Assembly (NCBI GenBank): GCA_021161675.1
Contig: JAGHAF010000107.1
Coordinates: 1 to 59,567, forward strand
DNA: 59,567 nucleotides
Origin: Planctomycetota bacterium
GTDB taxonomy: Bacteria; Planctomycetota; Brocadiia; SM23-32
Reading direction: 5' to 3'
In this document: piece after piece, positions 4,452-59,415 of the stretch
Layout of the letters: every line of letters starts with the position of its first letter
Position numbering within the stretch: the first letter of the stretch is position 1
Position numbers and translations under genes: made by a program
The notes under the pieces: model-generated
Databases searched by the model: none
What the model was told of the DNA's origin: nothing
What the model saw: the letters and a program-made list of their open reading frames with translations, nothing else

Positions 4452-7067
4452 TCAGCCGCCCCGCTGCCCCCGTTTTTCGATATTGGCGAAGTCCAGGCCG
4501 TCGAGCAGCCCGCCCATTTTCTTCCCTTCTTTCCCTCCGGGCTTCTCTGCGGCATTTTCTTGCGCCTTTGTCAGGTTAGGCGATTTCGAATCTCGCCCTT
4601 GCAGTATTCGCTGTTGGGCCTTGGAGAGACGGCTTGCCATGGCGGCCTTTTGAACCCGGCGGCTGTCCCACCCGACGGTGCTCTTGGGGGTGCGCACGAC
4701 ACTTGCGGCGGCGGCGCCCGGTTTCCTGTCGGGGGCTCTTGCGACCTTTTGGGAAGGTTCTCGGCGCGAGGACGCTCGCTCCCTGTGTTTCTGCTTGGGA
4801 GGCTCAACTTCCTTCTTAGGCGCTCCCTTCTTACGGAGGGAGAGCGCGATCCGGGACTTCTCTTCGTCCACGCGAACGACCCGAGCCCTGATGCTGTCTC
4901 CGACGCAGACGACATCATATGGAGTCTCTACGAAGCCGTCCGCAAGCTCGCTGATGTGAATCAGTCCATCTTCGCCGACGCCTACGTCAACAAAAACGCC
5001 GAACTCCACGATGTTGCGCACGGTTCCCTGGAGCCACTGGTCGGGCTCCAGCTCGGCCAGTGTGAGTCTCTTCTTCAGCAGTACGGGGGCAGGCTCCTCG
5101 AGCCGCGGATCGGGCCAGGGGTGGATCATCTCGTCCACCACGTCTTTGAGGAGCAGGTAGTGAACGTCGAATTGCTTCTCCAGATCGGCAAGGCGAATCT
5201 CGGCGCGATGTTCCTGGAGCTTCTTCTTTCCCTCCTCGGTGGTCATATCTTCGATGGAAAGGTCCAACTGCTCACAGATCGCCTCCGCAACGGGATAGAG
5301 GTTAGGATGTATGCGCGTTACATCCAGCGGATTGCTGGAGGCTGGCGCCCGCACAAATCCAACCGCCTGGCGATAGCTTTCCTCATCCACCTTGGGCACG
5401 TCCCTGAGCTGACGCCTGCTCTTGAACGGGCCCTTATTCTCGCGCTCGCTCACGATCTGAAGCGCCTGCTCAGGGTCCAACCCCGAGATATAACACAGCA
5501 TGTTCTGCTGGACATTGTTCAGGTCCACGCCCACGCTGCAAACACACTCCTCTATAACCCGATGAAGGAGGACCCTTAGCATCTCGCTGTCCACGTCATC
5601 CACGTAGGACGGTGGGCACAGATCGCTCGGTTTGACCTTGATCAGTTCCGAGAGCGGATCGATCAGACGACGTCCCACGGCCACCGCGACGCGCTCGGAG
5701 CGCGTCATATCGGACAGTTCATTCTGCGCGGAGCGGCTGCGCGAGTACTCTTTCAAGCCGTCCTCGCAGATGACGGCGTAGCTCAGGTCATTGAAGCGGT
5801 CCTTGATAATATCGCTGAGCAAATCCTCCGTTTCTTCGACGGCGGCGCCCTGCCCGATGGCGGCCACCTCCAGCTTGTGTTCCTCTATCATTCGGACGAG
5901 CGTCTCGGTCGCCTCTTCGCGTTCGTCGCGCGGGGCGTGTGGGTAGATCGTCGTGGTCTGGAGCACGTTGCCCTGCTCGTCCAGCGCGGCCACGTTGCAG
6001 CCGGTGCGATAACCGGGATGAATCCCGAGGGTGCGGCGCGGCAGTGGACGAACCATCAGCCTCGATTTGACGTTGCGCCGGATGCTGTCGAGGGCATAGT
6101 CCGCGGCCTTCTGCGAGAACCCCCTCTCCACTTCTCTGACCAATACGCGGGCGAGCGTATTTTCGATGCTGTGTTTGATGCAGGCGACCATGAACTCGGT
6201 GCTGTTCAGGTTTTTCAGGTCCTTTCCCTGGTTGGTGAGCGCGGCGTCGCCCAACTCCGATGTCGTGCGGGAAAATTGAGCGGCCCCGCCGGGCAGGTAC
6301 AACTCGGCGGCGGCCTTCTGCATCTGTTCCAGAGGGGGCAGGACGCTGTAATCGAGGACTTTGCTACGCTTGCCCCGCAGGATCATCAACATGTGATACG
6401 GATGCAGCTCACCCACGCGTTCTCGGAAGTCGAAGTAGGACCTGAACTGGTGCACCAGTCGTCCCGGCAGCGAACGCTTGCGGCGGTGCGAGACGATTTC
6501 CCCATACTTCTTCAGCACTTCACGCTGCCGACCCCGATTGGTCTTTTCCTCGGCTATCCAGTCGCTGACGACACAAAAGGCGCCTTCCAGAACGCTTTCC
6601 ACGTCGGCAAGGCCTTCGGCCGTTCCCACGTAAGGCTCGGCCTCGGCCGCAAGGTCGGGGATGAACTCTTGCTGAGCGAACAGTTTCGTTGCGAGCGGCT
6701 CCAGCCCTTGTGCCAGCGCCAGCCTGGAGCGTGAACGCTTGCGCGGCCTGTACGGAACGTAATAGTCCACCAGCTCGTGGATGGTGCCCGCCTGCTGGAT
6801 TTGCTCTTCAAGCCCCTCCGGGAGCGCTCCCCGGTCCTGGAGTTTCTTCACTATCTTCACGCGTCGTCTTGCCAGTTTATCGAGCCGTTCTTTCTCCTCC
6901 AGCAAGTCGTAGAAGTCCTCGGCCTTCAGATTGGCGGCCAGTTCCTTGTGGTAGCGGAGGATGTACGGAATACTGCATCCAGATTCCAGCAACTCCAGGA
7001 TTCTCTGCACCTGTTCCACCGTCAGATGGTACTGGGATGCTACGCTCTTCAGGGCCTTCTCAGGCAT
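4452..7067 (-). CDS. tex: Tex-like transcription accessory protein (YqgF/RuvC-like, HhH and S1 domains) with a long basic C-terminal tail
   Basis: 871 aa. S1 domain: GTVRNIVEFGVFVDVGVGEDGLIHISELADGFVETPYDVVCVGDSIRARVVRVDEEKSRIALSLR. The N-terminal Tex-type helical region and central YqgF-like segment are also present. Confidence 0.85.
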   Translation of the reverse strand: MPEKALKSVASQYHLTVEQVQRILELLESGCSIPYILRYHKELAANLKAEDFYDLLEEKERLDKLARRRVKIVKKLQDRGALPEGLEEQIQQAGTIHELVDYYVPYRPRKRSRSRLALAQGLEPLATKLFAQQEFIPDLAAEAEPYVGTAEGLADVESVLEGAFCVVSDWIAEEKTNRGRQREVLKKYGEIVSHRRKRSLPGRLVHQFRSYFDFRERVGELHPYHMLMILRGKRSKVLDYSVLPPLEQMQKAAAELYLPGGAAQFSRTTSELGDAALTNQGKDLKNLNSTEFMVACIKHSIENTLARVLVREVERGFSQKAADYALDSIRRNVKSRLMVRPLPRRTLGIHPGYRTGCNVAALDEQGNVLQTTTIYPHAPRDEREEATETLVRMIEEHKLEVAAIGQGAAVEETEDLLSDIIKDRFNDLSYAVICEDGLKEYSRSRSAQNELSDMTRSERVAVAVGRRLIDPLSELIKVKPSDLCPPSYVDDVDSEMLRVLLHRVIEECVCSVGVDLNNVQQNMLCYISGLDPEQALQIVSERENKGPFKSRRQLRDVPKVDEESYRQAVGFVRAPASSNPLDVTRIHPNLYPVAEAICEQLDLSIEDMTTEEGKKKLQEHRAEIRLADLEKQFDVHYLLLKDVVDEMIHPWPDPRLEEPAPVLLKKRLTLAELEPDQWLQGTVRNIVEFGVFVDVGVGEDGLIHISELADGFVETPYDVVCVGDSIRARVVRVDEEKSRIALSLRKKGAPKKEVEPPKQKHRERASSRREPSQKVARAPDRKPGAAAASVVRTPKSTVGWDSRRVQKAAMASRLSKAQQRILQGRDSKSPNLTKAQENAAEKPGGKEGKKMGGLLDGLDFANIEKRGQRGG

Positions 7068-49180: not shown

Positions 49181-50413
49181 TCATCGTTTTACCTTTCCCT
49201 TGATCCATTCCTTGATGCGCGTAGGCATGGAGGGCGCCACCTCGACGGCGTCGTGGGGACAGACCTCCGCGCAGCAGTAGCAACTGATGCAGCGAGCGCG
49301 ATTCACGTGATAGGTCCGGCTTTCTTCGTCGAAGAAGATGGCCTTGCTGGGACAGTTACGCTCGCACTCGCCGCATTGGCGGCAGATATCCTGATTGATC
49401 CTTGCATACGTTGTATTGAACGCGCTTATGAAGCGGCGGACCAGCCATCGTGGCACAAGGTCAGCGGCGAGCGTGGCTGCGTAAGTCGGCGGCCTGGCGA
49501 AGTTCGTCGGAGCGAACGCCGCTGCCGGCTCGCCGACGACCTGTATCTCCTCCGGCGCCGCGACGCCCAATCCCCTTTGCGCGCAGCGCGCCAGCAGGGG
49601 CACTTGCAGCGGGGCGAAGCCCATCACCTGCGCGCAGAAACTGTCCACCGCCACCGGGTCGGCCCCCGCCGCCACGAGCCCAACCCTCCGCAGCGCCCCG
49701 TTGGAGGGCCCTCGCCCTTCCATCCCCACTACGCCGTCTATAACCGCCACGCTGCGCGGCAGTGCGGCGTAGAGGTCACACAGCGCCGTGGCGAACTCGT
49801 CGGGGCGGGGGGCCAGCAAATGGAGGTTCTTCTTCGCTGCGCCCGGCACGAGCCCCAGCAGGTTCTTCACCGCGCCGGTCATGTAGGTCAAAAGGTGCGT
49901 CTTCAGCTTGGCGACGGAGACGATCAGGTCGAACCTGTCCAGGTTCGCCGGCAGGGGGATGTCCTTGAAGATCACGGACCCCTCCGAGCGCAAGGTCCGG
50001 CGCGGCTGCTGGTCCACGTTGTAGACCTCGGCCCCGATCTCGCCGGCGACCGCTTCCATGCCGGAACGCTCCAGCGCACGCGCCGTGGAGCCGTGGCCAA
50101 GCGAGCCACAGGAGTCTCCGATGGCGATCCGACAGCCGAAATCCGCGATCAATATCTCCCCCAGCGCGCGGACCACGCCCGGATGTGTATTGACGTGGGC
50201 CTCCGGCCCCTGCCAGCTGGAAAGCACATTCGGCTTCAGCAGAACGCGCTCCGCTTCGGCGAATACGCGCTGGAGGTCGGGCAGCGCCCCGATGCACTGC
50301 TGGACGGCCGCCCGCAGGTTAGATTGATTGTAAGTGACGCACCGGGCTGCGCTTATCAACGCGCCGCCGCCCGGAAGCGACCTCCCGGAACGAGTGACAC
50401 TATCTGCCGACAT
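49181..50413 (-). CDS. DUF362-type protein with a C-terminal 2x[4Fe-4S] ferredoxin domain
   Basis: VLLKPNVLSS..HPGVVRALGE..KLKTHLLT..VIDGVVGMEGRGP (DUF362-like), then CRQCGECERNCP and CISCYCCAEVCP. The start is uncertain. ATG 50413 was chosen because the longer track ORF (to 50662) overlaps atpC. Confidence 0.7.
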   Translation of the reverse strand: MSADSVTRSGRSLPGGGALISAARCVTYNQSNLRAAVQQCIGALPDLQRVFAEAERVLLKPNVLSSWQGPEAHVNTHPGVVRALGEILIADFGCRIAIGDSCGSLGHGSTARALERSGMEAVAGEIGAEVYNVDQQPRRTLRSEGSVIFKDIPLPANLDRFDLIVSVAKLKTHLLTYMTGAVKNLLGLVPGAAKKNLHLLAPRPDEFATALCDLYAALPRSVAVIDGVVGMEGRGPSNGALRRVGLVAAGADPVAVDSFCAQVMGFAPLQVPLLARCAQRGLGVAAPEEIQVVGEPAAAFAPTNFARPPTYAATLAADLVPRWLVRRFISAFNTTYARINQDICRQCGECERNCPSKAIFFDEESRTYHVNRARCISCYCCAEVCPHDAVEVAPSMPTRIKEWIKGKVKR

Positions 50414-50522
50414 TATTCCTGCCCTGGGGTAACCGCAAAAGAGCATTCTACCCGGCGGGGGCGACGCGCGCATCCGAAAGCGCATCGCAGTCGCCGCGCC
50501 GTAGAGGCACTGAGGGACTGGA

Positions 50523-50918
50523 TCATTCCACGCCGGCCACTCGAAGCCGGTTGGCGGCGCGGGCCAGCGCTGCGAGGGCGCGGGCCTCGTCAATCTCTTC
50601 CGCCCGGCGCCGGAGGCGTTCCTGCGCGCGCTTTCGGGCCTGCCGCGCCCTTTCCACATCAATCTCGGAGACCTTCTCCGCCGTGTCCACCAGCACTGTC
50701 ACGCGGTTCTGAAACACCTCCGCGAAGCCCCCCGTTGTGGCAATGTCGAGCGATTCGCCGGACAGGTCCACGCTGATACGCCCCATCGCCAGACTGGACA
50801 CCATGGAGACGTGACGCGGGAGGATGCCCAACTGCCCGCCCTCGCCCGGCAAGAGCACGTGTTGGACGTCTTGCGCATCGAGCACCGTCCGTTCTGGCGT
50901 GATGACTTTGATTCTCAT
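50523..50918 (-). CDS. atpC: F1 ATP synthase subunit epsilon
   Basis: MRIKVITPERTVLDAQDVQHVLLPGEGGQLGILPRHVSMVSSL.. with a C-terminal helical hairpin. ATG at 50918, 10 nt after the atpD stop. Confidence 0.9.
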   Translation of the reverse strand: MRIKVITPERTVLDAQDVQHVLLPGEGGQLGILPRHVSMVSSLAMGRISVDLSGESLDIATTGGFAEVFQNRVTVLVDTAEKVSEIDVERARQARKRAQERLRRRAEEIDEARALAALARAANRLRVAGVE

Positions 50919-50928
50919 GGTCGCTTTC

Positions 50929-53290
<2,362 letters not shown>

Positions 53291-53301
53291 CTTTCTCCTA
53301 C

Positions 53302-53421
53302 GGGAAAGGATGAAGGATGAAGGCGGAAGGAAATGCAGAAGACAAAAGGGTGAAGGATGAAGCTTGCGCGCAGAGCTTTGCCGTTGTCTTTGCCGTTAAT
53401 TTCATCCTTTATCCTTCTACC
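53302..53421. repeat. Full palindromic copy of the dispersed repeat family at the atpA|atpG junction
   Basis: gggaaaggatgaaggatgaaggcggaaggaaatgcagaagacaaaagggtgaaggatgaag / ctttgccgttgtctttgccgttaatttcatcctttatccttctaccc. It overlaps the last 4 codons of atpA. Confidence 0.75.
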
Positions 53422-55082
53422 CTGGCGCCATCGGCGCCCGCGGTGGCGACGAAAGATTTCCTGAACTCTTCGATCGCTTCCTCAAGCTTCTGTTGCGTTT
53501 CTTCGTCCAGTCTTCTGGTCTCGGCAATTCGGACGGGGATGCCGGGCCTTTCGCTTCGGATAAAGGCCAGGAATTCCTCGCCGAACCGTTGCACTTCCTC
53601 GACAGGGATGTCCCGCAGATGCTCCTGGACGCCGAGGTAGATGATGAGGACCTGGTATTCGACGGGCATTGGGACGTACTGGTCCTGCTTGAGCAGTTCG
53701 GTGAGCCTCTCGCCGCGGGCGAGCTGTCGCTGAGTGGCCTCGTCCAGTTCGGTGCCGAACTCGGCGAACGCCGCCATCTCGCGGTATTGGGCAAGCGAGA
53801 GCTTCAGTTCCCCCGCCACGCTTTTCATGGCGGGTATCTGCGCCGCGCTGCCGACGCGCGAGACGCTGGTCCCCACGTTCATGGCGGGCCGTATCATCTT
53901 GTGGAACAGGTCGGCCTCCAGGAATATCTGCCCGTCGGTGATCGAGATCAGGTTCGTGGGAATGTAGGTTGAGATGTCTCCGGCCTTGGTTTCCACAATG
54001 GGAAGGGCGGTGAGGGAGCCGCCGTCGGCGATTTCCCGGCCGCTGATGTCCTCCCCGCAGTGGGCGCACACCTTCGCCGCTTTGAGCTCTTCGAGGTTCT
54101 CCTCGGTGGGGGGCAGGGGCGTGAGCAGCCCGCAGGAGGGGCATATCTTCCCGTCGCTGGATTTCATCGCCCTTTCCAGCAGCCGGCTGTGCAGGTAGAA
54201 GATGTCCCCCGGATATGCCTCCCGGCCGGGCGGGCGCCGCAGGAGGAGCGATATCTGGCGGTAGGCCTCGGCGTGCTTGGAGAGGTCGTCGAAGGCGACC
54301 AGCGCGTGCCCGCCGCGCTCCATGAACTCCTCGCCGATGGCGCAGCCGGCGTACGGCGCCAGATACCACTGGGGCGCCGGCGCCGTCGCAGTGGCGGCGA
54401 CCACGACGGTCTTGTTCATCACGCCCTCGCGCTCGAAAGTCTCAACGATGCGGGCGATGGAGGCGTTCTTCTGCCCGATCGCCACGTAGATGCAGACGAC
54501 GTCGCTCGCGCGCTGGTTCAGGATGGCGTCCACGACGAGGGCGCTCTTACCGGTCTGGCGGTCGCCGATGATCAGCTCGCGTTGTCCCCGCCCGATGGGC
54601 GTCAGCGCGTCCACGATCTTATAGCCCGTGTGGAAGGGCTCCTTGACTGGTTGTCTCTTGACGATGCCTGGCGCTACGCGTTCGACCGGACGGTATCTTT
54701 CCGTCTCGATCGGGCCCCGGCCGTCCAGGGGCCTCCCGACGGCGTCTATGACCCGTCCCAACAGGGCATCGCCGACGGGGATGCTGGCGATCCGGCCGGT
54801 GCGTTCGACCTGGTCCCCCTCTTTGATCAGCTCGTCCTTGCCCAGCAGGACGCAGCCCAGGTTATCCTCCTCCAGGTTCATCGCGATGCCGATAACGTCG
54901 TGGGGGAACTTGAGCAGCTCCATTGCCTGGCACTGGCGGATGCCGTAGACGCGGGCGATGCCGTCCCCGACTTCGAGGACGGTTCCCACCGCGGCGAAGC
55001 CACCCGCTTGCGTTTCCGCCTGCAGCGCCCGCCGAATGATGGAACTGACTTCTTCCGGCCTCATAGATGTCTCATCCGCCAT
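53409..55082 (-). CDS. atpA: F1 ATP synthase subunit alpha, with a Cys4 insertion
   Basis: Walker A GDRQTGKS; [10 protein letters not shown] ... [34 protein letters not shown]. 557 aa, versus about 500-515 aa as I recall for typical bacterial alpha subunits. The extra sequence is [18 protein letters not shown] between LLERA and GSLTALP. Confidence 0.95.
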
Positions 55083-55617
55083 ATGCCATTCTCTCCCTTG
55101 CTTGCTTCAGGCGTCCACGCAGGCTCCCGTCGTAGAACAGGTCGCCCATCCGCACCTGGAAGCCCGCGATCAGTGACTCACTCACTTGCTCGTCCAGGCG
55201 GACGTGCTGACCGGTGATTGATTCCAGTTTCTTCACGATGCCCATTCGCTGCTCCTCGCTCAGCGGCGCCGCGCTGGTTACGCGCGCCTCGACTATGCCC
55301 AGGCGGCGATCAACCTCCTCCGCGAAGCCGTCCGCCACGTGCGCCAGGATGGACATCCGTTTCTTGTGGATCAGCAAGTCGAGCAGGCGGGCGCTCAGGT
55401 CCGAAAGTCCCAGCTCCGCGCTTATCCCGCGCAGCAGGGCCTGCTTCTCGGCCCTGCTCTTGCGGCCGGCCACGGCGAAAGTGCGCAGCTCGGCGCTGTC
55501 CTCGAATGCCCGCGCCAGGGTCCGCAGCTCGCCGCGCACCCGCCGCAGCGCGCCGCTTTCCTCGGCGAGGTCCGCCAGCGCTTCGGCGTATCTACGGCTG
55601 ATTATCGTCGCTCTCAC
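55072..55617 (-). CDS. atpH: F1 ATP synthase subunit delta (OSCP)
   Basis: A 181-aa helical protein: [14 protein letters not shown].., C-terminal ..[21 protein letters not shown]. It sits between atpF and atpA and overlaps both. Confidence 0.85.
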
Positions 55618-56384
55618 TGCTGCGCCTCGGGTCCTTTGTCGCCCTCGAGGGACATCTGTTCAATGCTCTCCCGGACGAGCCTTTCGTGGTCATCCTCGGT
55701 CAGTTCGCGCCTCAGCAGCTTTTCGGCCACCAGTGTGCTCAGGTCGGCGACCTCTTCGCGCAGGCTTGTCCTGGCGCGGCGCAGCTCCTCCCGGAGTCGC
55801 TCTTGCGCGTCCCGTCTTAGGCGGTCCGCCTCGCGCCGCGCCCTCTCCACGATCTGTTCGCCCTGCTGGTCGGCCCGTTCCTGTGCTTTCTCGATGATTC
55901 CCGCGCGCTCCGAATGTATCTGCCCGAGTTCCCGGCGCCTCTGCTCGACCAGGTCTGCGGCCCGCCCTTCCCGGCGTTCGGCCTCGTCAAGTTGCTCTCT
56001 GACGCTGCGGCGTCTCTCGTCCAGGAAGGCGAGCAGCGGATCCCACAGAAACCCGTACATGACCATGAGGAGAATGGCGAAGTTCAGACACTGAAGGATG
56101 AGCGTATAGTTGACGTTGATGATCTGGCCCTTTGCGGCGAGGAGGCTCTTGAGCACGCTGGCCGCCTCTTTCTGGGTGACGGGGTCCGCACGGATGTGCT
56201 TCGGGTCTTCGGCGTAGGCCTGCTGACGCACCTCGTTCAGTTTTTGCTGAAGGACCCCTGTCACGCGCTCCGGGTATTGCGGCCGCGAGTCAGCGACGAA
56301 ATCTGTGATCATCACGGCGACCGTGACCGCGTAGAGGACCCCAATGATCACCAGGCCCTTCCTGGCGCCGGGCTTTATGTGCAC
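55614..56384 (-). CDS. atpF: FO ATP synthase subunit b with an N-terminal extension
   Basis: The canonical b part begins at about residue 93: NVNYTLILQCLNFAILLMVMYGFLWDPLLAFLDERRRSVREQLDEAER.., followed by a long charged helix. Residues 1-92 add another TM helix (GLVIIGVLYAVTVAVMITDFV). Confidence 0.8.
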   Translation of the reverse strand: MHIKPGARKGLVIIGVLYAVTVAVMITDFVADSRPQYPERVTGVLQQKLNEVRQQAYAEDPKHIRADPVTQKEAASVLKSLLAAKGQIINVNYTLILQCLNFAILLMVMYGFLWDPLLAFLDERRRSVREQLDEAERREGRAADLVEQRRRELGQIHSERAGIIEKAQERADQQGEQIVERARREADRLRRDAQERLREELRRARTSLREEVADLSTLVAEKLLRRELTEDDHERLVRESIEQMSLEGDKGPEAQQ

Positions 56385-56430
56385 GGGACATTCTCCCCTA
56401 TAATTGTCGGGCGTTGCGATCGGAAGGTTT

Positions 56431-56700
<270 letters not shown>

Positions 56701-56716
56701 TTATCGGCTGATTCTA

Positions 56717-57484
56717 TCAAATGAAAAAAATCAGGATGAATGCGATCACAAAGGCGTAAATGCACGTGGACTGGCTCACCGCCCCGCCCACGAGCATCAC
56801 GCGCATCAGTTGGTTGTTAGCTTCTGGCCTTCTGGCCGTTCCCTCACAGGCGCCTCCCGCCGCGACGCCGGCGCCGAACCCAGGCCCTATGGCGCCCGCG
56901 CCGATGCAAAGGCCAGCTGACATGGCGCTGACGGCCGCAACTGGATCATTGCCGACGTATTTTTGAAACTGCTGTGCGAAAGCGAGGACTACCGCTATCA
57001 CCAGCGCGAACACCGCGGGGCTGCTCGCCAGGCCCTGCCCGAGCAACATCATGATGGTCACGTGTCCACGCGTGCGCGGATTGCGGCCGATCCCTGCGGC
57101 GGCGCGGGCGCCCGCCACACCGGCCCCAACGCCGGAACCGACGGCGCCAAGGCCCATGGCCAGTCCGGCGCCCAGAAAGGCGCCCATTGCCTCGGCGCAT
57201 GGCACGGGCGTCAGAAAGATCAGCACGAAGGCCATCACCAGCGCAAAAATGCCGCTCGTCTCCGCTACGGCCTGCCCCACCAGCATGACCCTTGTCAGGT
57301 CTCCGGCGGCGGAAGGCTGCCGCGAGATGGCGTCCACCGTGGCGGCGGCATTATAGCCCTCGCCAACCCCGGCGCCAATCGCCCCGAGCCCCATGGCCAG
57401 ACCGGCCCCCAGGTACTGGGTCATCCGCATAAAAGGCGCCCAGTCAATGTTCTGCGCCGCGACGCTAAGCCAATCTCCACTCAA
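56717..57484 (-). CDS. Triplicated (three-hairpin, 6-TM) c-subunit proteolipid of the F-type ATP synthase
   Basis: A 255-aa ORF with a TTG start 6 nt after GAGGAG. It has three tandem c-like units. Helix-1 motifs: GLGAIGAGVGEG, GLGAVGSGVGAG, GAGAIGPGFGAG. Loops: SRQP, GRNP, ARRP. Helix-2 motifs: GQAVAETSGIF, GQGLASSPAVF, GGAVSQSTCIY. Only unit 1 has the carboxylates (E42, E75). Confidence 0.85.
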   Translation of the reverse strand: MSGDWLSVAAQNIDWAPFMRMTQYLGAGLAMGLGAIGAGVGEGYNAAATVDAISRQPSAAGDLTRVMLVGQAVAETSGIFALVMAFVLIFLTPVPCAEAMGAFLGAGLAMGLGAVGSGVGAGVAGARAAAGIGRNPRTRGHVTIMMLLGQGLASSPAVFALVIAVVLAFAQQFQKYVGNDPVAAVSAMSAGLCIGAGAIGPGFGAGVAAGGACEGTARRPEANNQLMRVMLVGGAVSQSTCIYAFVIAFILIFFI

Positions 57485-57557
57485 CGTGCACTCCTCTATG
57501 CGGTTACAAAGAAGCCTTTTACGCTTCCGCCCAGTAAAACGACAGATGAAGCGCGAC

Positions 57558-57650
57558 GGGGAAAGGTAGAAGGACGAAGGGAGAAGGTTGAATCATGAAT
57601 GGCGCCGAGACGCTCTCGTTAGCTTTTCCTTCATCCTTTTGCCTTATCTT
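57558..57650. repeat. Full palindromic copy of the dispersed repeat family at the atpB|c junction
   Basis: ggggaaaggtagaaggacgaagggagaaggttgaatcatgaatggcgcc / gctctcgttagcttttccttcatccttttgccttatctt. It abuts the atpB stop codon. Confidence 0.7.
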
Positions 57651-58562
57651 TCATTCCCGTATCTGCACCGCCGTGTAGGCCAGCGCCAGCATGGCGAACA
57701 CAAACGCCTGCACCAATCCAATGAAGAATCCGAAAAACGGTATCAGAATCAGCGGGATCCCAATGTAGAGAATCAGGTGTGACACAACCGTCAGGATCAC
57801 AAACCCGCCGAAGATATTCCCGAACAACCGGAACGGGTGGGAAATGCTCTTGCCCAGCTCCCCCACCACGTTTAGCGGCGCCATCACCACGTTGGGCACC
57901 CTCCCGCGCTGCAAGGCGAACAGGAGGACCATCACGGATAGGGCTGCCAGCAGCCCCGCCGCCAGGCCGCCGCCCACCTTCCGGGCGACGCTCGCCTGCG
58001 CGAAGGAGCGCGCGTAGCCCGAAATAAGCAAGTAATTCAGCCATGCGCCGAGTACCAGGAAAACCACGCCGACACCTTTGGTTATCGGCCGGTCCCCCGG
58101 GAAGCTGGGCTCAAAGAAGCTCCACAGCCACTCCCGAAAGCCCTTGACCCGGATGGCCGATATGTGAACCACAAAGAACACGATCAGCGCCAGCCCCAGG
58201 GGGGTGTTCAGGTCCTGCGTGGGGCAATAAAACCCCGGCCAGCCAAGCGCCGCCAGAACATTCGGTATCGTGCCGATAACGTTGGAGAACAGGACGAAAA
58301 GGAAAAGCGTGATGATGAACGGCAGGTATTTGCGGCCGTGCTCCTTGCCCAGTGTGCTGTCACAGAGGTCCTCGAAGAACTCAGTCACCATCTCGAAGAT
58401 AACCTGCAGACGCCCGGGCGCGCGCTCCAGGCGCCGCGCCACCAGCAGGGCCAGCGTTATCAGGATAGCCATCACCAACCACGAGTTGTACAACGTGGCG
58501 ACGTTGAACCCCTCGAAGGGCAATCCCCATATCTGAACCGGCGCGTTCGGTATTATGTCCAT
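57651..58562 (-). CDS. atpB: FO ATP synthase subunit a, with an internal insertion
   Basis: 303 aa. The conserved Arg motif is SHPFRLFGNIFGG, and PTQDLNTPLGLALIVFF is also present. About 65 extra residues with two hydrophobic segments lie between FFEPSFPG and APLNVVGELGK. Confidence 0.9.
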   Translation of the reverse strand: MDIIPNAPVQIWGLPFEGFNVATLYNSWLVMAILITLALLVARRLERAPGRLQVIFEMVTEFFEDLCDSTLGKEHGRKYLPFIITLFLFVLFSNVIGTIPNVLAALGWPGFYCPTQDLNTPLGLALIVFFVVHISAIRVKGFREWLWSFFEPSFPGDRPITKGVGVVFLVLGAWLNYLLISGYARSFAQASVARKVGGGLAAGLLAALSVMVLLFALQRGRVPNVVMAPLNVVGELGKSISHPFRLFGNIFGGFVILTVVSHLILYIGIPLILIPFFGFFIGLVQAFVFAMLALAYTAVQIRE

Positions 58563-58700
58563 CTTACCTCACCCATCCTTTTTCTTCCTTCTGTCGTTCG
58601 CCCCCTGCCGCCTCTCTCCTTTCTGTCTCCTGTCTGCTCCCTGCCTCCTGTCGCCATCCTGCCTCCTGCCACCTGCCTCCTGCCTCCTGATTCCTGGCTG
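58563..58700. repeat. Pyrimidine-rich (purine-rich in mRNA sense) low-complexity repeat tract at the atpI|atpB junction
   Basis: ccatcctttttcttccttctgtcgttcg.. then reiterated ctgcctcctg units (ctccctgcctcctgtcgccatcctgcctcctgccacctgcctcctgcctcctg). It is in frame with the atpI 3' end. Confidence 0.65.
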
Positions 58701-59061
58701 TCAGCTCCGTCGCAACGATAGCGACGTTCATCACGAGCAATCCCCCGGCCGTCGTCCAGGGGGAAAACAGCCCGCTCAGCCCGAAAGCAAGCCCCAGGGC
58801 CGCCCCGCTCAACAAGTAGCCCGCAAGGCGCAGACGGACGAGCCGGGCAGCGTCAGGCCGGCCCCGCATCGCCCTGTACCGCAGGGAGAACCGCAGAATG
58901 CTCACGATGGCGCCCAGCAGCAACCCGAGGGCGGCCGCCCTGCCCCATAGCAGGTAGAGAGCCACGGCGCCGCACAGGGAAATGACCTGCGCAAGCCTCA
59001 ACGCCCGCTGCCAGAAACCCGACACTTCATCCTGCTGCGTTGCAGGCGACATAGCGCTCAC
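58564..59061 (-). CDS. atpI: ATP synthase protein I (AtpI-like) with a repeat-derived C-terminal tail
   Basis: Hydrophobic 4-helix-like core (VISLCGAVALYLLWG, LGLLLGAIVSIL, LAGYLLSGAALGLAF, GGLLVMNVAIVA), located upstream of atpB. ATGA overlap with atpZ. The tail QEAGGRWQEAGWRQEAGSRQE.. is encoded by the repeat. Confidence 0.6.
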   Translation of the reverse strand: MSAMSPATQQDEVSGFWQRALRLAQVISLCGAVALYLLWGRAAALGLLLGAIVSILRFSLRYRAMRGRPDAARLVRLRLAGYLLSGAALGLAFGLSGLFSPWTTAGGLLVMNVAIVATELTARNQEAGGRWQEAGWRQEAGSRQETERREAAGGERQKEEKGWVR

Positions 59062-59324
59062 TCGCGTTCTGATTCCGCACTGTGTTCGTTGTCACTATCG
59101 GCCTGCGGCTGGACGGCCTTCATCACCATGCGGTAAACCGCAAGCATCCCCCCGCCGATTCCCGCGGCGGTCAGGGCAATGGTGAAAAGCGGCTCCGTGC
59201 CCAGCCATCTATCCAGGTAGAAGCCCGCCAGCAATCCGCCCGCTACGGCGCCGACCATGATAAGGCCGAGTTGCCCCACCATGGTCAGGATGACCAGAAC
59301 GTCTTCCCTGCCCTCGGACGGCAT
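59058..59324 (-). CDS. atpZ: AtpZ/AtpR-like small membrane protein (ATPase_gene1 family)
   Basis: Two TM helices: LVILTMVGQLGLIMVGAVAGGLLAGFYLDRWLGTEPLFTIALTAAGIGGGMLAVYRMV. The ATG at 59324 lies 4 nt after GGGAGGA. The longer track ORF (to 59396) would include the promoter -10 box. Confidence 0.7.
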   Translation of the reverse strand: MPSEGREDVLVILTMVGQLGLIMVGAVAGGLLAGFYLDRWLGTEPLFTIALTAAGIGGGMLAVYRMVMKAVQPQADSDNEHSAESERE

Positions 59325-59386
59325 AAAATCCTCCCAGGCCGGCAAACGCGGCGGGCACGACAGGCCGCACGGCCTACAGAAATGGT

Positions 59387-59415
59387 ATTCTGACACACCA
59401 GCCCCAACTTGTCAA
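59387..59415 (-). promoter_or_regulatory. Sigma-70-type promoter of the atp operon
   Basis: On the minus strand: TTGACA (59410-59415), 17-nt spacer, CAGAAT (59387-59392), about 60 nt upstream of the atpZ ATG. Confidence 0.5.

Follow-up and report, generated by a model that had tools for sequence, protein, structure and literature searches.

A conserved three-hairpin c subunit with a single ion site in a planctomycete F-type ATP synthase operon: a likely component of a hybrid rotor ring

The number of ion sites in the rotor of an ATP synthase fixes its ion/ATP ratio, which decides both the smallest usable gradient and the ATP yield per ion, and this ratio is critical for anaerobes that live near the thermodynamic limit. 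What, then, is the role of a c subunit that has three hairpins and a single ion site, encoded in a complete F-type operon next to an ordinary c subunit? The gene in question lies on contig JAGHAF010000107.1 of a Planctomycetota bacterium, in a stretch of 59,567 nucleotides that was analysed as a whole and is called the window below. A preliminary description made from the letters of the window had read the gene as three c-subunit hairpins fused in frame, functional rather than decaying, with one surviving ion-binding carboxylate.

Profile searches bore out the in-frame fusion. Pfam ATP-synt_C gave three separate, non-overlapping matches on the 255-aa protein (E 2.3e-41; 140 bits against a cutoff of 24), TIGR01260 scored 100 bits (cutoff 44), and the F0F1 c models were the best NCBIfam matches, with three matches each. 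Besides these above-threshold scores, the protein carries the Gly-rich helix 1 and the polar R-Q/N-P loop of F-type c subunits. An AlphaFold2 (AF2) model built from an alignment of 23 sequences (pLDDT 91.5, pTM 0.86) contains the six helices that had been expected, all of them long (residues 15-55, 57-90, 97-134, 136-173, 181-218 and 220-254) and predicted to form three hairpins with short helical linkers of 6-7 residues each. The start position is the sole uncertainty: an AGGAG Shine-Dalgarno sequence lies 7 nt 5' of the TTG start, and some gene calls begin at M19, giving 237 aa and leaving the hairpins unaffected.

Anaerobes often have tandem c genes (PMC13343851) and the window is a metagenome-type contig, both of which would suit a reading of the ORF as three tandem c genes joined through an error in sequencing or assembly, or as a degenerating duplicate. 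We give this reading practically no chance. Several independent assemblies (NCBI, ENA and JGI contigs) contain exactly this protein and the architecture is uninterrupted in 22 of 22 aligned orthologs, so that the fused ORF is not an assembly artefact. These orthologs are 66-80% identical to the window protein, share its residue pattern and contain no stops or frameshifts; those named are Brocadiia/Planctomycetota MAGs. Related multi-hairpin genes are present in the complete genomes of cultured bacteria. Moreover, dN/dS is ~0.1 for each hairpin of the fused subunit (0.09-0.11 for hairpin 2), which places the ion-less hairpins under constraint equal to that on hairpin 1. Together with the confident AF2 model and its short helical linkers, these results rule out an artefact or a decaying gene: the three-hairpin gene is real and under constraint.

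Table 1. Features of the F-type operon and of the three-hairpin c gene (positions in the window)
Feature	Position	Strand	Details and evidence
Complete F-type operon	50523-59396	minus	canonical order, delta included; Pfam
Promoter-like site	59387-59415		
ATPase_gene1	59058-59396	minus	Pfam
AtpI-like gene	58564-59061	minus	Pfam
a subunit (atpB), 303 aa	57651-58562	minus	stator Arg in HPFRLFGN; Pfam ATP-synt_A
Translation start region, three-hairpin gene	57485-57500	minus	AGGAG, then weak TTG start
Three-hairpin c subunit gene	56717-57484	minus	255 aa from TTG; stop codon 56717-56719; ORF list, Pfam, AF2, orthologs, dN/dS
Hairpin 1, residues 21-92	57209-57424	minus	E42 (57359-57361) and E75 (GAG; plus-strand CTC at 57260-57262) retained; alignment, codons
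Hairpin 2, residues 97-170, ion-less	56975-57196	minus	A121 at helix-1 position; S154 (57023-57025) replaces Glu; then S155, P156, F159
Hairpin 3, residues 183-255, ion-less itself	56720-56938	minus	A205; Q238 (CAG; plus-strand CTG at 56771-56773); S239/T240/Y243 (56756-56770) retained
Monomeric c, 81 aa	56431-56676	minus	E29, E62, S63, T64, Y67, the complete two-carboxylate Na+ signature; Pfam, NCBIfam
b	55614-56384	minus	Pfam
delta/OSCP	55072-55617	minus	Pfam
alpha	53409-55082	minus	Pfam
gamma	52367-53290	minus	Pfam
beta	50929-52341	minus	Pfam
epsilon	50523-50918	minus	Pfam

The operon context was also as previously described, with the three-hairpin gene 3' of atpB and 5' of the 81-aa c gene (Table 1). 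The operon opens with the AtpI-like gene and ATPase_gene1, an order common to loci L001, L003, L005 and L010, and alignment revealed a lineage-specific insertion of 71 aa in the a subunit. The order atpB, multi-hairpin c, one-hairpin c, b recurs in six further distinct operons from at least two phyla, and a monomeric c lies directly 3' of the multi-hairpin gene in every operon examined. The window's 81-aa monomer, which is 91% identical to the monomer of locus L001 and 76% to that of Desulfosarcina, is presumed to be the ring partner of the three-hairpin subunit. Multi-hairpin genes start with TTG or GTG, or with ATG lacking a Shine-Dalgarno sequence, whereas monomeric c genes start with ATG preceded by GGAGG or AGGAG; these weak and strong signals would be consistent with a low stoichiometry of the multi-hairpin subunit. 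Between the two c genes we found no terminator-like site and no Rfam match to a regulatory RNA.

Other assignments fit the gene less well. TIGR03322, the model for N-ATPase c, reached 129.3 bits summed over the three hairpins against a cutoff of 130.85, and the operon has delta and the canonical F-type order, whereas N-type operons run beta-epsilon-Q-R-a-c-b-alpha-gamma without delta; an N-ATPase c was therefore rejected. An archaeal-type triple K was likewise rejected (NF004913, 59.4 bits against a cutoff of 211, with F0F1 c models scoring far better), as was orthology to the F-ATPase-1 c genes of Kuenenia stuttgartiensis, which are two one-hairpin c genes, both with Glu (PMC2936114).

We then compared the ion sites hairpin by hairpin in an alignment of the three hairpins with the window's 81-aa c and the c subunits of Ilyobacter tartaricus and E. 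coli. E75, S154 and Q238 align with the E65/D61 position, and E42, A121 and A205 with the helix-1 Q32 position. The helix-2 carboxylate is thus kept in one of the three hairpins only, as E75 of hairpin 1, and the helix-1 Glu is Ala in hairpins 2 and 3; on both points, and on the codon positions of E75 and Q238, the preliminary description was exact. The motif order of the protein is [E..ETS..F][A..SSP..F][A..QST..Y]. Both hairpin 1 and the 81-aa monomer carry the full two-carboxylate Na+ signature, from which motif alone Na+ specificity is predicted. The same set of residues (E32/E65/S66/T67/Y70) is found in the c subunit of Fusobacterium nucleatum (PDB 3ZK1), which differs in having one hairpin and a homomeric c11 ring in which every site is active. 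In that ring the ion site lies at the subunit interface, where the neighbouring subunit contributes Ser66 and the Val63 carbonyl, and Glu65 is hydrogen-bonded by Ser66 and Tyr70 (PMC3692424). Similarly, the ProAD rule has [S/T][S/T/Q]xxY supplied by the preceding hairpin (PMC11738941 supplement).

At the hairpin 1/2 and 2/3 interfaces every liganding side chain is gone: the Glu positions are occupied by A121/S154 and A205/Q238, and the Tyr positions by F80 and F159; T76, S77 and F80 of hairpin 1 look toward the dead interface with hairpin 2. By contrast, hairpin 3 keeps S239, T240 and Y243, which in a ring complete the Na+ site of the next hairpin, so a full ligand set is present where a preceding c or hairpin 3 meets hairpin 1, and where hairpin 3 meets a following c. 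The losses obey the interface rules known for Na+ sites, and only the two internal interfaces are dead.

This pattern is conserved. The 23 sequences show no variation at E42, E75, T76, S77 and F80 of hairpin 1, S155, P156 and F159 of hairpin 2, and Q238, S239, T240 and Y243 of hairpin 3. Position 154, Ser in the window protein, is Thr in 90% or more of the orthologs, and the Ser and Gln substitutions pointed out earlier are in this sense conserved. Because dN/dS is low in every hairpin and the substituted residues vary little or not at all among the orthologs, the site losses are supported as specific ones, in line with the earlier view of a functional gene. A related pattern appears in the 120 closest clusters, which are phylogenetically non-independent. 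When Tyr70 of hairpin i was set against Glu65 of hairpin i+1, both were present in 46 cases and both absent in 303, Glu65 occurred without Tyr70 in 2 and Tyr70 without Glu65 in 0; these counts are inflated by common ancestry, and the pattern is weak in wider, more divergent representatives. Glu in the first hairpin together with Tyr in the last was found in 119/120 of these proteins.

The retention of E42 and E75 in hairpin 1 and of S239, T240 and Y243 in hairpin 3 points to insertion of the protein into a ring beside Glu-bearing hairpins, most likely those of monomeric c. We therefore consider it likely that the 255-aa protein is a proteolipid of a Na+-coupled F1Fo ATP synthase rotor, in which it would take up three adjacent ring positions, most likely in low copy (probably one) and together with several 81-aa c subunits, giving a hetero-oligomeric hybrid rotor like the one whose structure is known from Acetobacterium woodii (nine c2/3 and one c1). 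Every site of a Na+ c ring lies between two hairpins, one giving the helix-1 Glu or Gln and the helix-2 Glu, and the preceding one giving Ser66, Thr67, Tyr70 and a backbone carbonyl. Hairpin 1 would contribute E42 and E75 to a normal site shared with the preceding subunit, and hairpin 3 would contribute S239, T240 and Y243 to a normal site shared with the following subunit. The protein would thereby fill three hairpins of circumference with one ion site, each copy taking two consecutive sites out of the ring, and the smaller number of sites would lower the Na+/ATP ratio; purely as an illustration, a ring of 11 hairpins would have 9 rather than 11 sites and a ratio of 3.0 rather than 3.67. A point against this mechanism is that, owing to the two consecutive ion-less positions, ~98 degrees of an 11-hairpin ring would have to be driven by a single ion. 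Work on a fused ring of Bacillus PS3 showed that a pair of impaired sites does less harm when the two are adjacent (PMC8809890), which fits the clustering of dead sites in one polypeptide. What we infer here is that fused subunit and monomer share one ring, along with the copy number, the size of the ring, its coupling to Na+ and the physiological gain; the interface logic of the retained residues strengthens the case for a mixed ring with a lower ion/ATP ratio.

To our knowledge, the A. woodii ring, with one site in eleven missing, is the only characterised bacterial F-type ring that lacks a site. Its c1, the 'V-type' c of the F/V-hybrid rotor ring (PDB 4BEM), was the best PDB match to the 255-aa protein in both sequence (4bem_J, E 4e-29) and fold (Foldseek E 6e-8). 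In A. woodii, as in Clostridium aceticum, c1 is encoded in an F-type operon right after atpB and before a one-hairpin c. It too consists of fused hairpins of F-type sequence, with motif order [Q..ETS..F][Q..QTT..Y]: the first hairpin keeps the Na+ site, with an identical ETSGIF, and the last has Gln for Glu and keeps S/T-T-x-x-Y (QTTGIY in A. woodii, QSTCIY in the window). However, c1 has two hairpins (four TM helices, ~18 kDa) and one ion-less position, whereas the window protein has three hairpins, six helices and two such positions in a row, and in its additional middle hairpin the carboxylate is replaced by Ser/Thr and not by Gln. The ligand on helix 1 also differs, being Glu (the two-carboxylate type) in the window protein rather than Gln, and Ala in its dead hairpins. 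A. woodii ATP synthase is the only solved case of such a ring, with nine one-hairpin c (c2/3) and one c1, and this hybrid ring is capable of ATP synthesis (PMC9171764).

The residues retained in hairpins 1 and 3 are equally compatible with a rotor in which the three-hairpin subunit stands alone or in several copies, since hairpin 3 (S239, T240, Y243) of one copy and hairpin 1 (E42, E75) of another could make a complete site. Four copies, for example, would give 12 hairpins and 4 sites, with V-ATPase-like gearing, and two kinds of enzyme would then come from one operon, a normal one with c only and one of low ratio, which would either spend ATP mainly to pump Na+ or depend on a high sodium-motive force. 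Precedents exist among V-type and archaeal enzymes. The triplicated archaeal A-type proteolipid, K of Methanocaldococcus jannaschii (NF004913), likewise has three fused hairpins and fewer sites than hairpins; it keeps two of three sites and its ring is made from K alone, but it belongs to an A1Ao enzyme and an archaeal operon, whereas the window operon is F-type with OSCP. The eukaryotic V-ATPase c/c'/c'' and the four-helix NtpK of Enterococcus hirae, which are structural neighbours of the AF2 model at 16-24% identity, consist of a duplicated hairpin in which two hairpins share one carboxylate, and hence have a lower ion/ATP ratio; these, however, are two-hairpin proteins of V-type enzymes, in rings solely of such subunits. 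Nevertheless, we think such alternative rotors unlikely. The monomeric c gene sits directly downstream in every operon examined, the translation signals of the multi-hairpin gene are the weaker ones, and Brandt et al. (FEBS J 2016) reportedly saw no ring form from A. woodii c1 alone. The A. woodii ring, moreover, is a mixture of nine one-hairpin c and one c1, although V-type and archaeal rings of multi-hairpin subunits only do exist and even synthesise ATP, with accepted archaeal hairpin numbers of 1, 2, 3 or 13 (PMC9171764).

As a pre-formed arc of three hairpins within the ring, the subunit might instead have been selected for a structural task, nucleating ring assembly or fixing the hairpin number, in which case site loss would be a tolerated side effect and not a matter of gearing. 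The presence of the assembly-type genes AtpI and ATPase_gene1 in the operon speaks for such a role, as does the variable number of middle hairpins in related proteins (3, 4 or 5 hairpins in total) between end hairpins of constant character. A tolerated loss would be expected to drift, whereas the dead interfaces show specific substitutions under strict conservation (Q238, T/S154, and F80 and F159 for Tyr), with the ion-less hairpins as constrained as hairpin 1. In addition, A. woodii rings still form without c1. We accordingly rate an assembly role as improbable, and return to the hybrid rotor as the preferred reading.

Is the window gene a one-off? The preliminary description knew of no triplicated one-site c in a bacterial F-type operon, and our full-text literature search indeed turned up no account of a bacterial F-type c with more than two hairpins, although an earlier mention in Brandt & Muller 2015 (Biol Chem 396:1031, 'Hybrid rotors...') is possible. 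The gene is nevertheless no singleton: F-type c genes with 3, 4 or 5 hairpins and one or two sites are plentiful in public data, and make up a large family of multi-hairpin subunits without description in the literature searched. Four- and five-hairpin versions occur in Desulfobacterales, including cultured Desulfosarcina variabilis ('AtpE4', 324 aa) and Desulfatitalea alkaliphila (WP_246911839.1, 404 aa), in the same operon slot; the same search returned no experimental or descriptive paper on them. They share the end logic of the window protein (E...F in the first hairpin, QST..Y in the last), their first hairpins form one clade with that of the window protein (90% bootstrap), and their monomeric c shares 75-76% identity with the 81-aa c of the window. 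They differ in having Gln, not Ser/Thr, in the middle hairpins, in keeping a second site in some versions (pattern EQQE), and in Fo genes that lie apart from the F1 genes. The number of middle hairpins varies across the family while the end hairpins keep their character, and ten three-hairpin representatives (50%-identity level) all scored best with F0F1 c models. A scan of GTDB genomes with peptide patterns gave only three loci, all in Brocadiaceae/Brocadiia MAGs, and the taxonomic breadth therefore rests mainly on protein searches.

The earlier appeal to A. woodii atpE1 as precedent holds for the best PDB match and the shared operon position, but not, it seems, for descent. In a neighbour-joining tree of 37 hairpins, a distance-based tree on 73 columns only, the family hairpins and their monomers excluded A. 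woodii c1/c2 in 97% of 200 bootstraps, which suggests that the fusion arose independently and that c1 is an analogue, not an ortholog. A. woodii c1 is from Firmicutes, whereas the window family spans Planctomycetota and Desulfobacterota. We tentatively propose, as a generalisation that may well not hold, a large class of F-type hybrid rotors in anaerobic Planctomycetota (Brocadiia) and Desulfobacterota, with an origin independent of A. woodii c1, in which a polypeptide of 3-5 hairpins would interrupt a Na+ c ring of otherwise normal build with 2-4 ion-less positions in a row.

If so, the hybrid-rotor principle would be widespread, modular and apparently convergent. A dead sector of ~100-160 degrees per turn and an ion/ATP ratio near or below 3 would follow, and natural rotors with so long an unpowered arc would challenge simple one-ion-one-step views of Fo. 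They would also provide a natural test of torque generation and storage in Fo, with a gear tunable through the number of middle hairpins, and cultured D. variabilis and D. alkaliphila, with their longer versions, offer experimental access. In public annotation, multi-hairpin c genes carry the plain label 'ATP synthase F0 subunit C', and pipelines predicting ion/ATP ratios from c sequences discard or miscount them. The ProAD treatment of c/K subunits allows 'two or more' hairpins and gives logos for one and two only (PMC11738941), and a published stoichiometry predictor drops c sequences above 250 aa.

The F-type ATP synthase operon of the window is complete on its minus strand, as read from the ORF list and Pfam, and its fused c subunit starts at a TTG codon with AGGAG upstream. 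Three Pfam ATP-synt_C matches (E 2e-41) fall on this ORF; the best NCBIfam models, those of F0F1 c, likewise give three matches, and AlphaFold2 (23-sequence alignment; pLDDT 91.5, pTM 0.86) predicts six long helices that pair into three hairpins, the linkers being 6-7 residues long. When the three units were aligned with the 81-aa one-hairpin c encoded next to it (the monomer), Ilyobacter tartaricus c and E. coli c, the carboxylate position (E65/D61) was occupied by E75, S154 and Q238 in units 1, 2 and 3, and the helix-1 ligand position (Q32) by E42, A121 and A205. The monomer carries the full two-carboxylate signature (E29, E62, S63, T64, Y67). The preliminary description, which had read three in-frame c hairpins with the ion carboxylate in the first only and the helix-1 Glu turned to Ala in the other two, and had anticipated three profile matches and six helices, is therefore confirmed in full, since the ORF, domain, alignment, codon and AlphaFold2 results agree; its codon coordinates were exact.

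ATP synthase operon of the window and associated features
Feature	Coordinates	Strand	Basis
Promoter match (sigma-70-like)	59387-59415	minus	
ATPase_gene1	59058-59396	minus	Pfam
AtpI-like gene	58564-59061	minus	Pfam
a subunit (atpB)	57651-58562	minus	Pfam
Insertion in a subunit	57885-58100	minus	
Non-coding spacer	57485-57650		
255-aa c-like ORF	56717-57484	minus	ORF list, Pfam
81-aa c	56431-56676	minus	Pfam
b	55614-56384	minus	Pfam
delta/OSCP	55072-55617	minus	Pfam
alpha	53409-55082	minus	Pfam
Insertion in alpha	54024-54165	minus	
gamma	52367-53290	minus	Pfam
beta	50929-52341	minus	Pfam
epsilon	50523-50918	minus	Pfam
DUF362 protein	49181-50662	minus	

The identical protein is recorded in contigs from NCBI, ENA and JGI assemblies, the only difference between gene callers being the start (TTG or internal M19). 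All 22 orthologs (225-258 aa, 66-80% identity; the named ones are 'Candidatus Brocadiia', Brocadiaceae or Planctomycetota MAGs) keep the three-hairpin architecture uninterrupted, and E42, E75, T76, S77, F80, S155, P156, F159, Q238, S239, T240 and Y243 are invariant among them. Of the two site substitutions, whose conservation the preliminary description had proposed checking, Q238 is fixed; at position 154, where the window has Ser, at least 90% of orthologs have Thr. Rough dN/dS values (Nei-Gojobori, against two orthologs, synonymous sites being near saturation) were 0.13-0.17 in hairpin 1, against 0.09-0.11 and about 0.10 in hairpins 2 and 3; constraint on the ion-less hairpins is therefore at least as strong as on the ion-binding hairpin. 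This excludes decay and mis-assembly and supports the earlier argument for a functional gene; with the same protein in three sets of assemblies and every ortholog uninterrupted, a frameshift or assembly artefact is very improbable.

What, then, would such a subunit do in a ring? In Fusobacterium nucleatum c, the ion is bound by Glu32 and Glu65 of one subunit, the adjacent subunit gives Ser66 O-gamma and the Val63 carbonyl, Glu65 is hydrogen-bonded by Ser66 and Tyr70, and a water ligand is held by Thr67 (PMC3692424); under the ProAD rule, [S/T][S/T/Q]xxY of multi-hairpin subunits comes from the preceding hairpin (PMC11738941 supplement). Judged by its residues, the loss pattern of the fused subunit is coherent with this Na+ c-ring geometry, in which the ion lies between two hairpins. 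Hairpin 1 retains E42 and E75 and needs S/T/Y partners from the preceding ring neighbour, while hairpin 3 retains S239, T240 and Y243, available to the following one. Both internal interfaces have lost all their ligands, with T76/S77/F80 opposite A121/S154 between hairpins 1 and 2, and S155/P156/F159 opposite A205/Q238 between hairpins 2 and 3. Across the best 120 clusters of a protein search, Tyr70 of one hairpin coincided with Glu65 of the next in 46 cases and both were absent in 303, Tyr70 occurred without Glu65 in 0 and Glu65 without Tyr70 in 2, counts that are inflated by shared ancestry; 119 of these 120 have Glu in the first hairpin and Tyr in the last. The EQQQ and EQQE architectures (residues at the carboxylate position, hairpin by hairpin; at least 2 in the set) differ as the interface rule predicts, a hairpin preceding a Glu hairpin reading QTT..Y and one preceding a Gln hairpin QTP..F. 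From these interface residues and the Tyr70/Glu65 pairing, the protein therefore appears built for a ring position between Glu-bearing hairpins.

We infer that the ring takes up the fused protein as a minority subunit, because multi-hairpin genes start with TTG or GTG, or with ATG lacking a Shine-Dalgarno sequence, and monomer genes with ATG plus GGAGG/AGGAG, and because of two analogies: the A. woodii ring, with one c1 (its two-hairpin c) and nine monomers (PMC9171764), and C. aceticum, where two c genes are laid out likewise and the enzyme depends on Na+ (PMC7911925). Given these start signals and analogies, rings containing several copies of the fused subunit, or built of it only, seem unlikely. 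As a minority subunit, each fused copy would occupy three ring positions and contribute one site. To illustrate, a ring of 11 hairpins like known Na+ rings, a size assumed here for the window, with eight c and one fused subunit would have 9 sites, giving 3.0 rather than 3.67 Na+/ATP and about 98 degrees between sites across the fused subunit. The lower ion/ATP ratio would raise the ATP yield per ion and require a larger sodium-motive force; in reverse mode, a larger gradient would be attainable from ATP. In single-chain c10 of Bacillus PS3, the activity loss from two impaired sites was smallest when they were adjacent (PMC8809890), which gives a kinetic reason to gather the dead sites within a single polypeptide. 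That the role is mainly structural, in ring-sizing, we consider marginally less probable still than the multi-copy rings.

The closest solved structure by both sequence and fold is A. woodii F/V-hybrid ring subunit c1 (4bem_J, sequence E 4e-29; Foldseek E 6e-8, target TM-score 0.81), followed by V-type four-helix proteolipids; none of the 41 Foldseek matches at probability 1.00 was a six-helix proteolipid, all having one or two hairpins. With c1 reading [Q..ETSGIF][Q..QTTGIY], the window protein resembles the c1 design plus an extra dead middle hairpin.

Relatives are abundant. The protein search gave 1,196 matches at E <= 1e-10, and its best 120 clusters comprised 23 with three hairpins and one carboxylate site, 43 with four and one, 41 with four and two, 9 with five and one, 2 with five and two, 1 with five and five, and 1 with six and one. 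Four- and five-hairpin clusters of named source are mostly from Desulfobacterales, and two come from cultured species: the 324-aa 'AtpE4' of Desulfosarcina variabilis (complete genome CP159846) and the 404-aa WP_246911839.1 of Desulfatitalea alkaliphila. These cultured species make experimental work on assembly, stoichiometry, ion specificity and benefit feasible. When 1.84 billion cluster representatives were scanned exhaustively, 2,008 matched at E <= 0.001 (78 at E <= 1e-30); the 150 proteins listed among them included 17 clusters with three hairpins and one site, 12 with three hairpins and two sites, and forms with 7, 8, 11 and 15 hairpins. F0F1 c models scored best for all ten three-hairpin representatives tested. 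The loci fetched were three operons of the Brocadiia type, a 4-hairpin relative within that lineage, those of Desulfosarcina and of a Desulfobacteraceae MAG, and an unrelated 5-hairpin form with Glu throughout; in each, atpB is followed by multi-hairpin c and then by a one-hairpin c of 81-89 aa. The all-Glu form, P0081 (L012 5001-6305), lies inside an F-type operon with the monomer gene next. The forms with seven or more hairpins (P0250, 631 aa; P0172, 968 aa; P0168, 1139 aa; P0179, 524 aa) have a carboxylate in all hairpins except the first of P0168, where the position falls in an alignment gap, and may be whole or half rings as a single chain.

In a neighbour-joining tree (37 hairpins, 73 columns, distance method, 200 bootstraps), hairpins cluster by their position in the protein. 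First hairpins of Brocadiia and Desulfobacterales form one clade (90% bootstrap), middle hairpins group more weakly (48%), and last hairpins fall near monomeric c; together with their monomers, the hairpins of this family form a group that leaves out A. woodii c1 and c2 (its one-hairpin c) and I. tartaricus c (97%). Allowing for the short alignment and the distance method, the tree suggests a single ancestral fusion common to both phyla, via descent or transfer, later duplication of the middle hairpin, and an origin separate from Firmicute c1. The window and Desulfosarcina monomers are 76% identical. In P0010, a 4-hairpin relative of the window's own lineage (L011 800-1825, 341 aa, pattern ETTQ, 58% identity), the two middle hairpins cluster with window hairpin 2, which indicates recent duplication of a dead middle hairpin. 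The earlier interpretation is supported with two corrections: a fused c with one site is not unique, multi-hairpin relatives with 3, 4 and 5 hairpins being abundant and known also from cultured Desulfobacterales, and the c1 precedent, which stands for operon slot and best PDB match, is probably an analogue rather than an ortholog.

Hybrid F/V rotors are known, as are archaeal proteolipids of 2, 3 or 13 hairpins (PMC9171764), and ProAD recognises in general terms c/K subunits with 'two or more' hairpins, whether or not these carry sites, its logos covering one- and two-hairpin forms only (PMC11738941). Our full-text literature search, whose scope did not extend to Matthies et al. 2014 and Brandt & Muller 2015, found no description of a bacterial F-type c with at least three hairpins; a Desulfatiglans paper mentions only 'two to four atpE copies' (PMC13343851). 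The fused c is not general among anammox bacteria, as the two c subunits of K. stuttgartiensis F-ATPase-1 are both ordinary one-hairpin forms (PMC2936114). Public databases already list the window gene, under the annotation of an ordinary subunit C.

An insertion of about 71 aa (residues ~155-226) with two hydrophobic stretches lies in the 303-aa a subunit, immediately ahead of the stator-Arg helix (HPFRLFGN). An alignment covering the Brocadiia-lineage operon L001 and Desulfobacterales found it shared with L001 and lacking from the 224-aa Desulfobacterales a subunits, and it is therefore independent of multi-hairpin c as such; the a subunit of L010, a second related operon, is 303 aa by length. 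A stretch of about 40 aa (residues ~306-353) is inserted in F1 alpha (557 aa); its CPxCG...CxxCG resembles a Cys4 zinc ribbon, and there is a weak match to Pfam Zn_ribbon_3. The insertion is kept in the L001, L010 and L011 alphas (558-568 aa) and missing from the ordinary 506-aa alpha of L012. A metal-binding insertion in F1 alpha, putative as it is, would be unusual. In the b subunit (256 aa; orthologs 249-267 aa) the ATP-synt_B domain begins at residue 94, leaving an N-terminal extension of about 90 aa.

The junction between atpB and multi-hairpin c seems to tolerate insertions: the non-coding spacer is 166 nt in the window and 12 nt in L010, and in the related MAG of L001 a 124-aa PDDEXK_3 (nuclease-fold) gene (5083-5457) lies between atpB and three-hairpin c. 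In the window, atpC has as its neighbour a gene for a DUF362 protein containing a 4Fe-4S dicluster domain, and L010 has a shorter DUF362 gene upstream of its orthologous operon, a recurring neighbourhood that may or may not be meaningful. Finally, the sigma-70-like promoter match (TTGACA and CAGAAT 17 nt apart, plus a TG extension) overlaps the GTG codon annotated as the start of ATPase_gene1, so the true start of this gene is probably further downstream.
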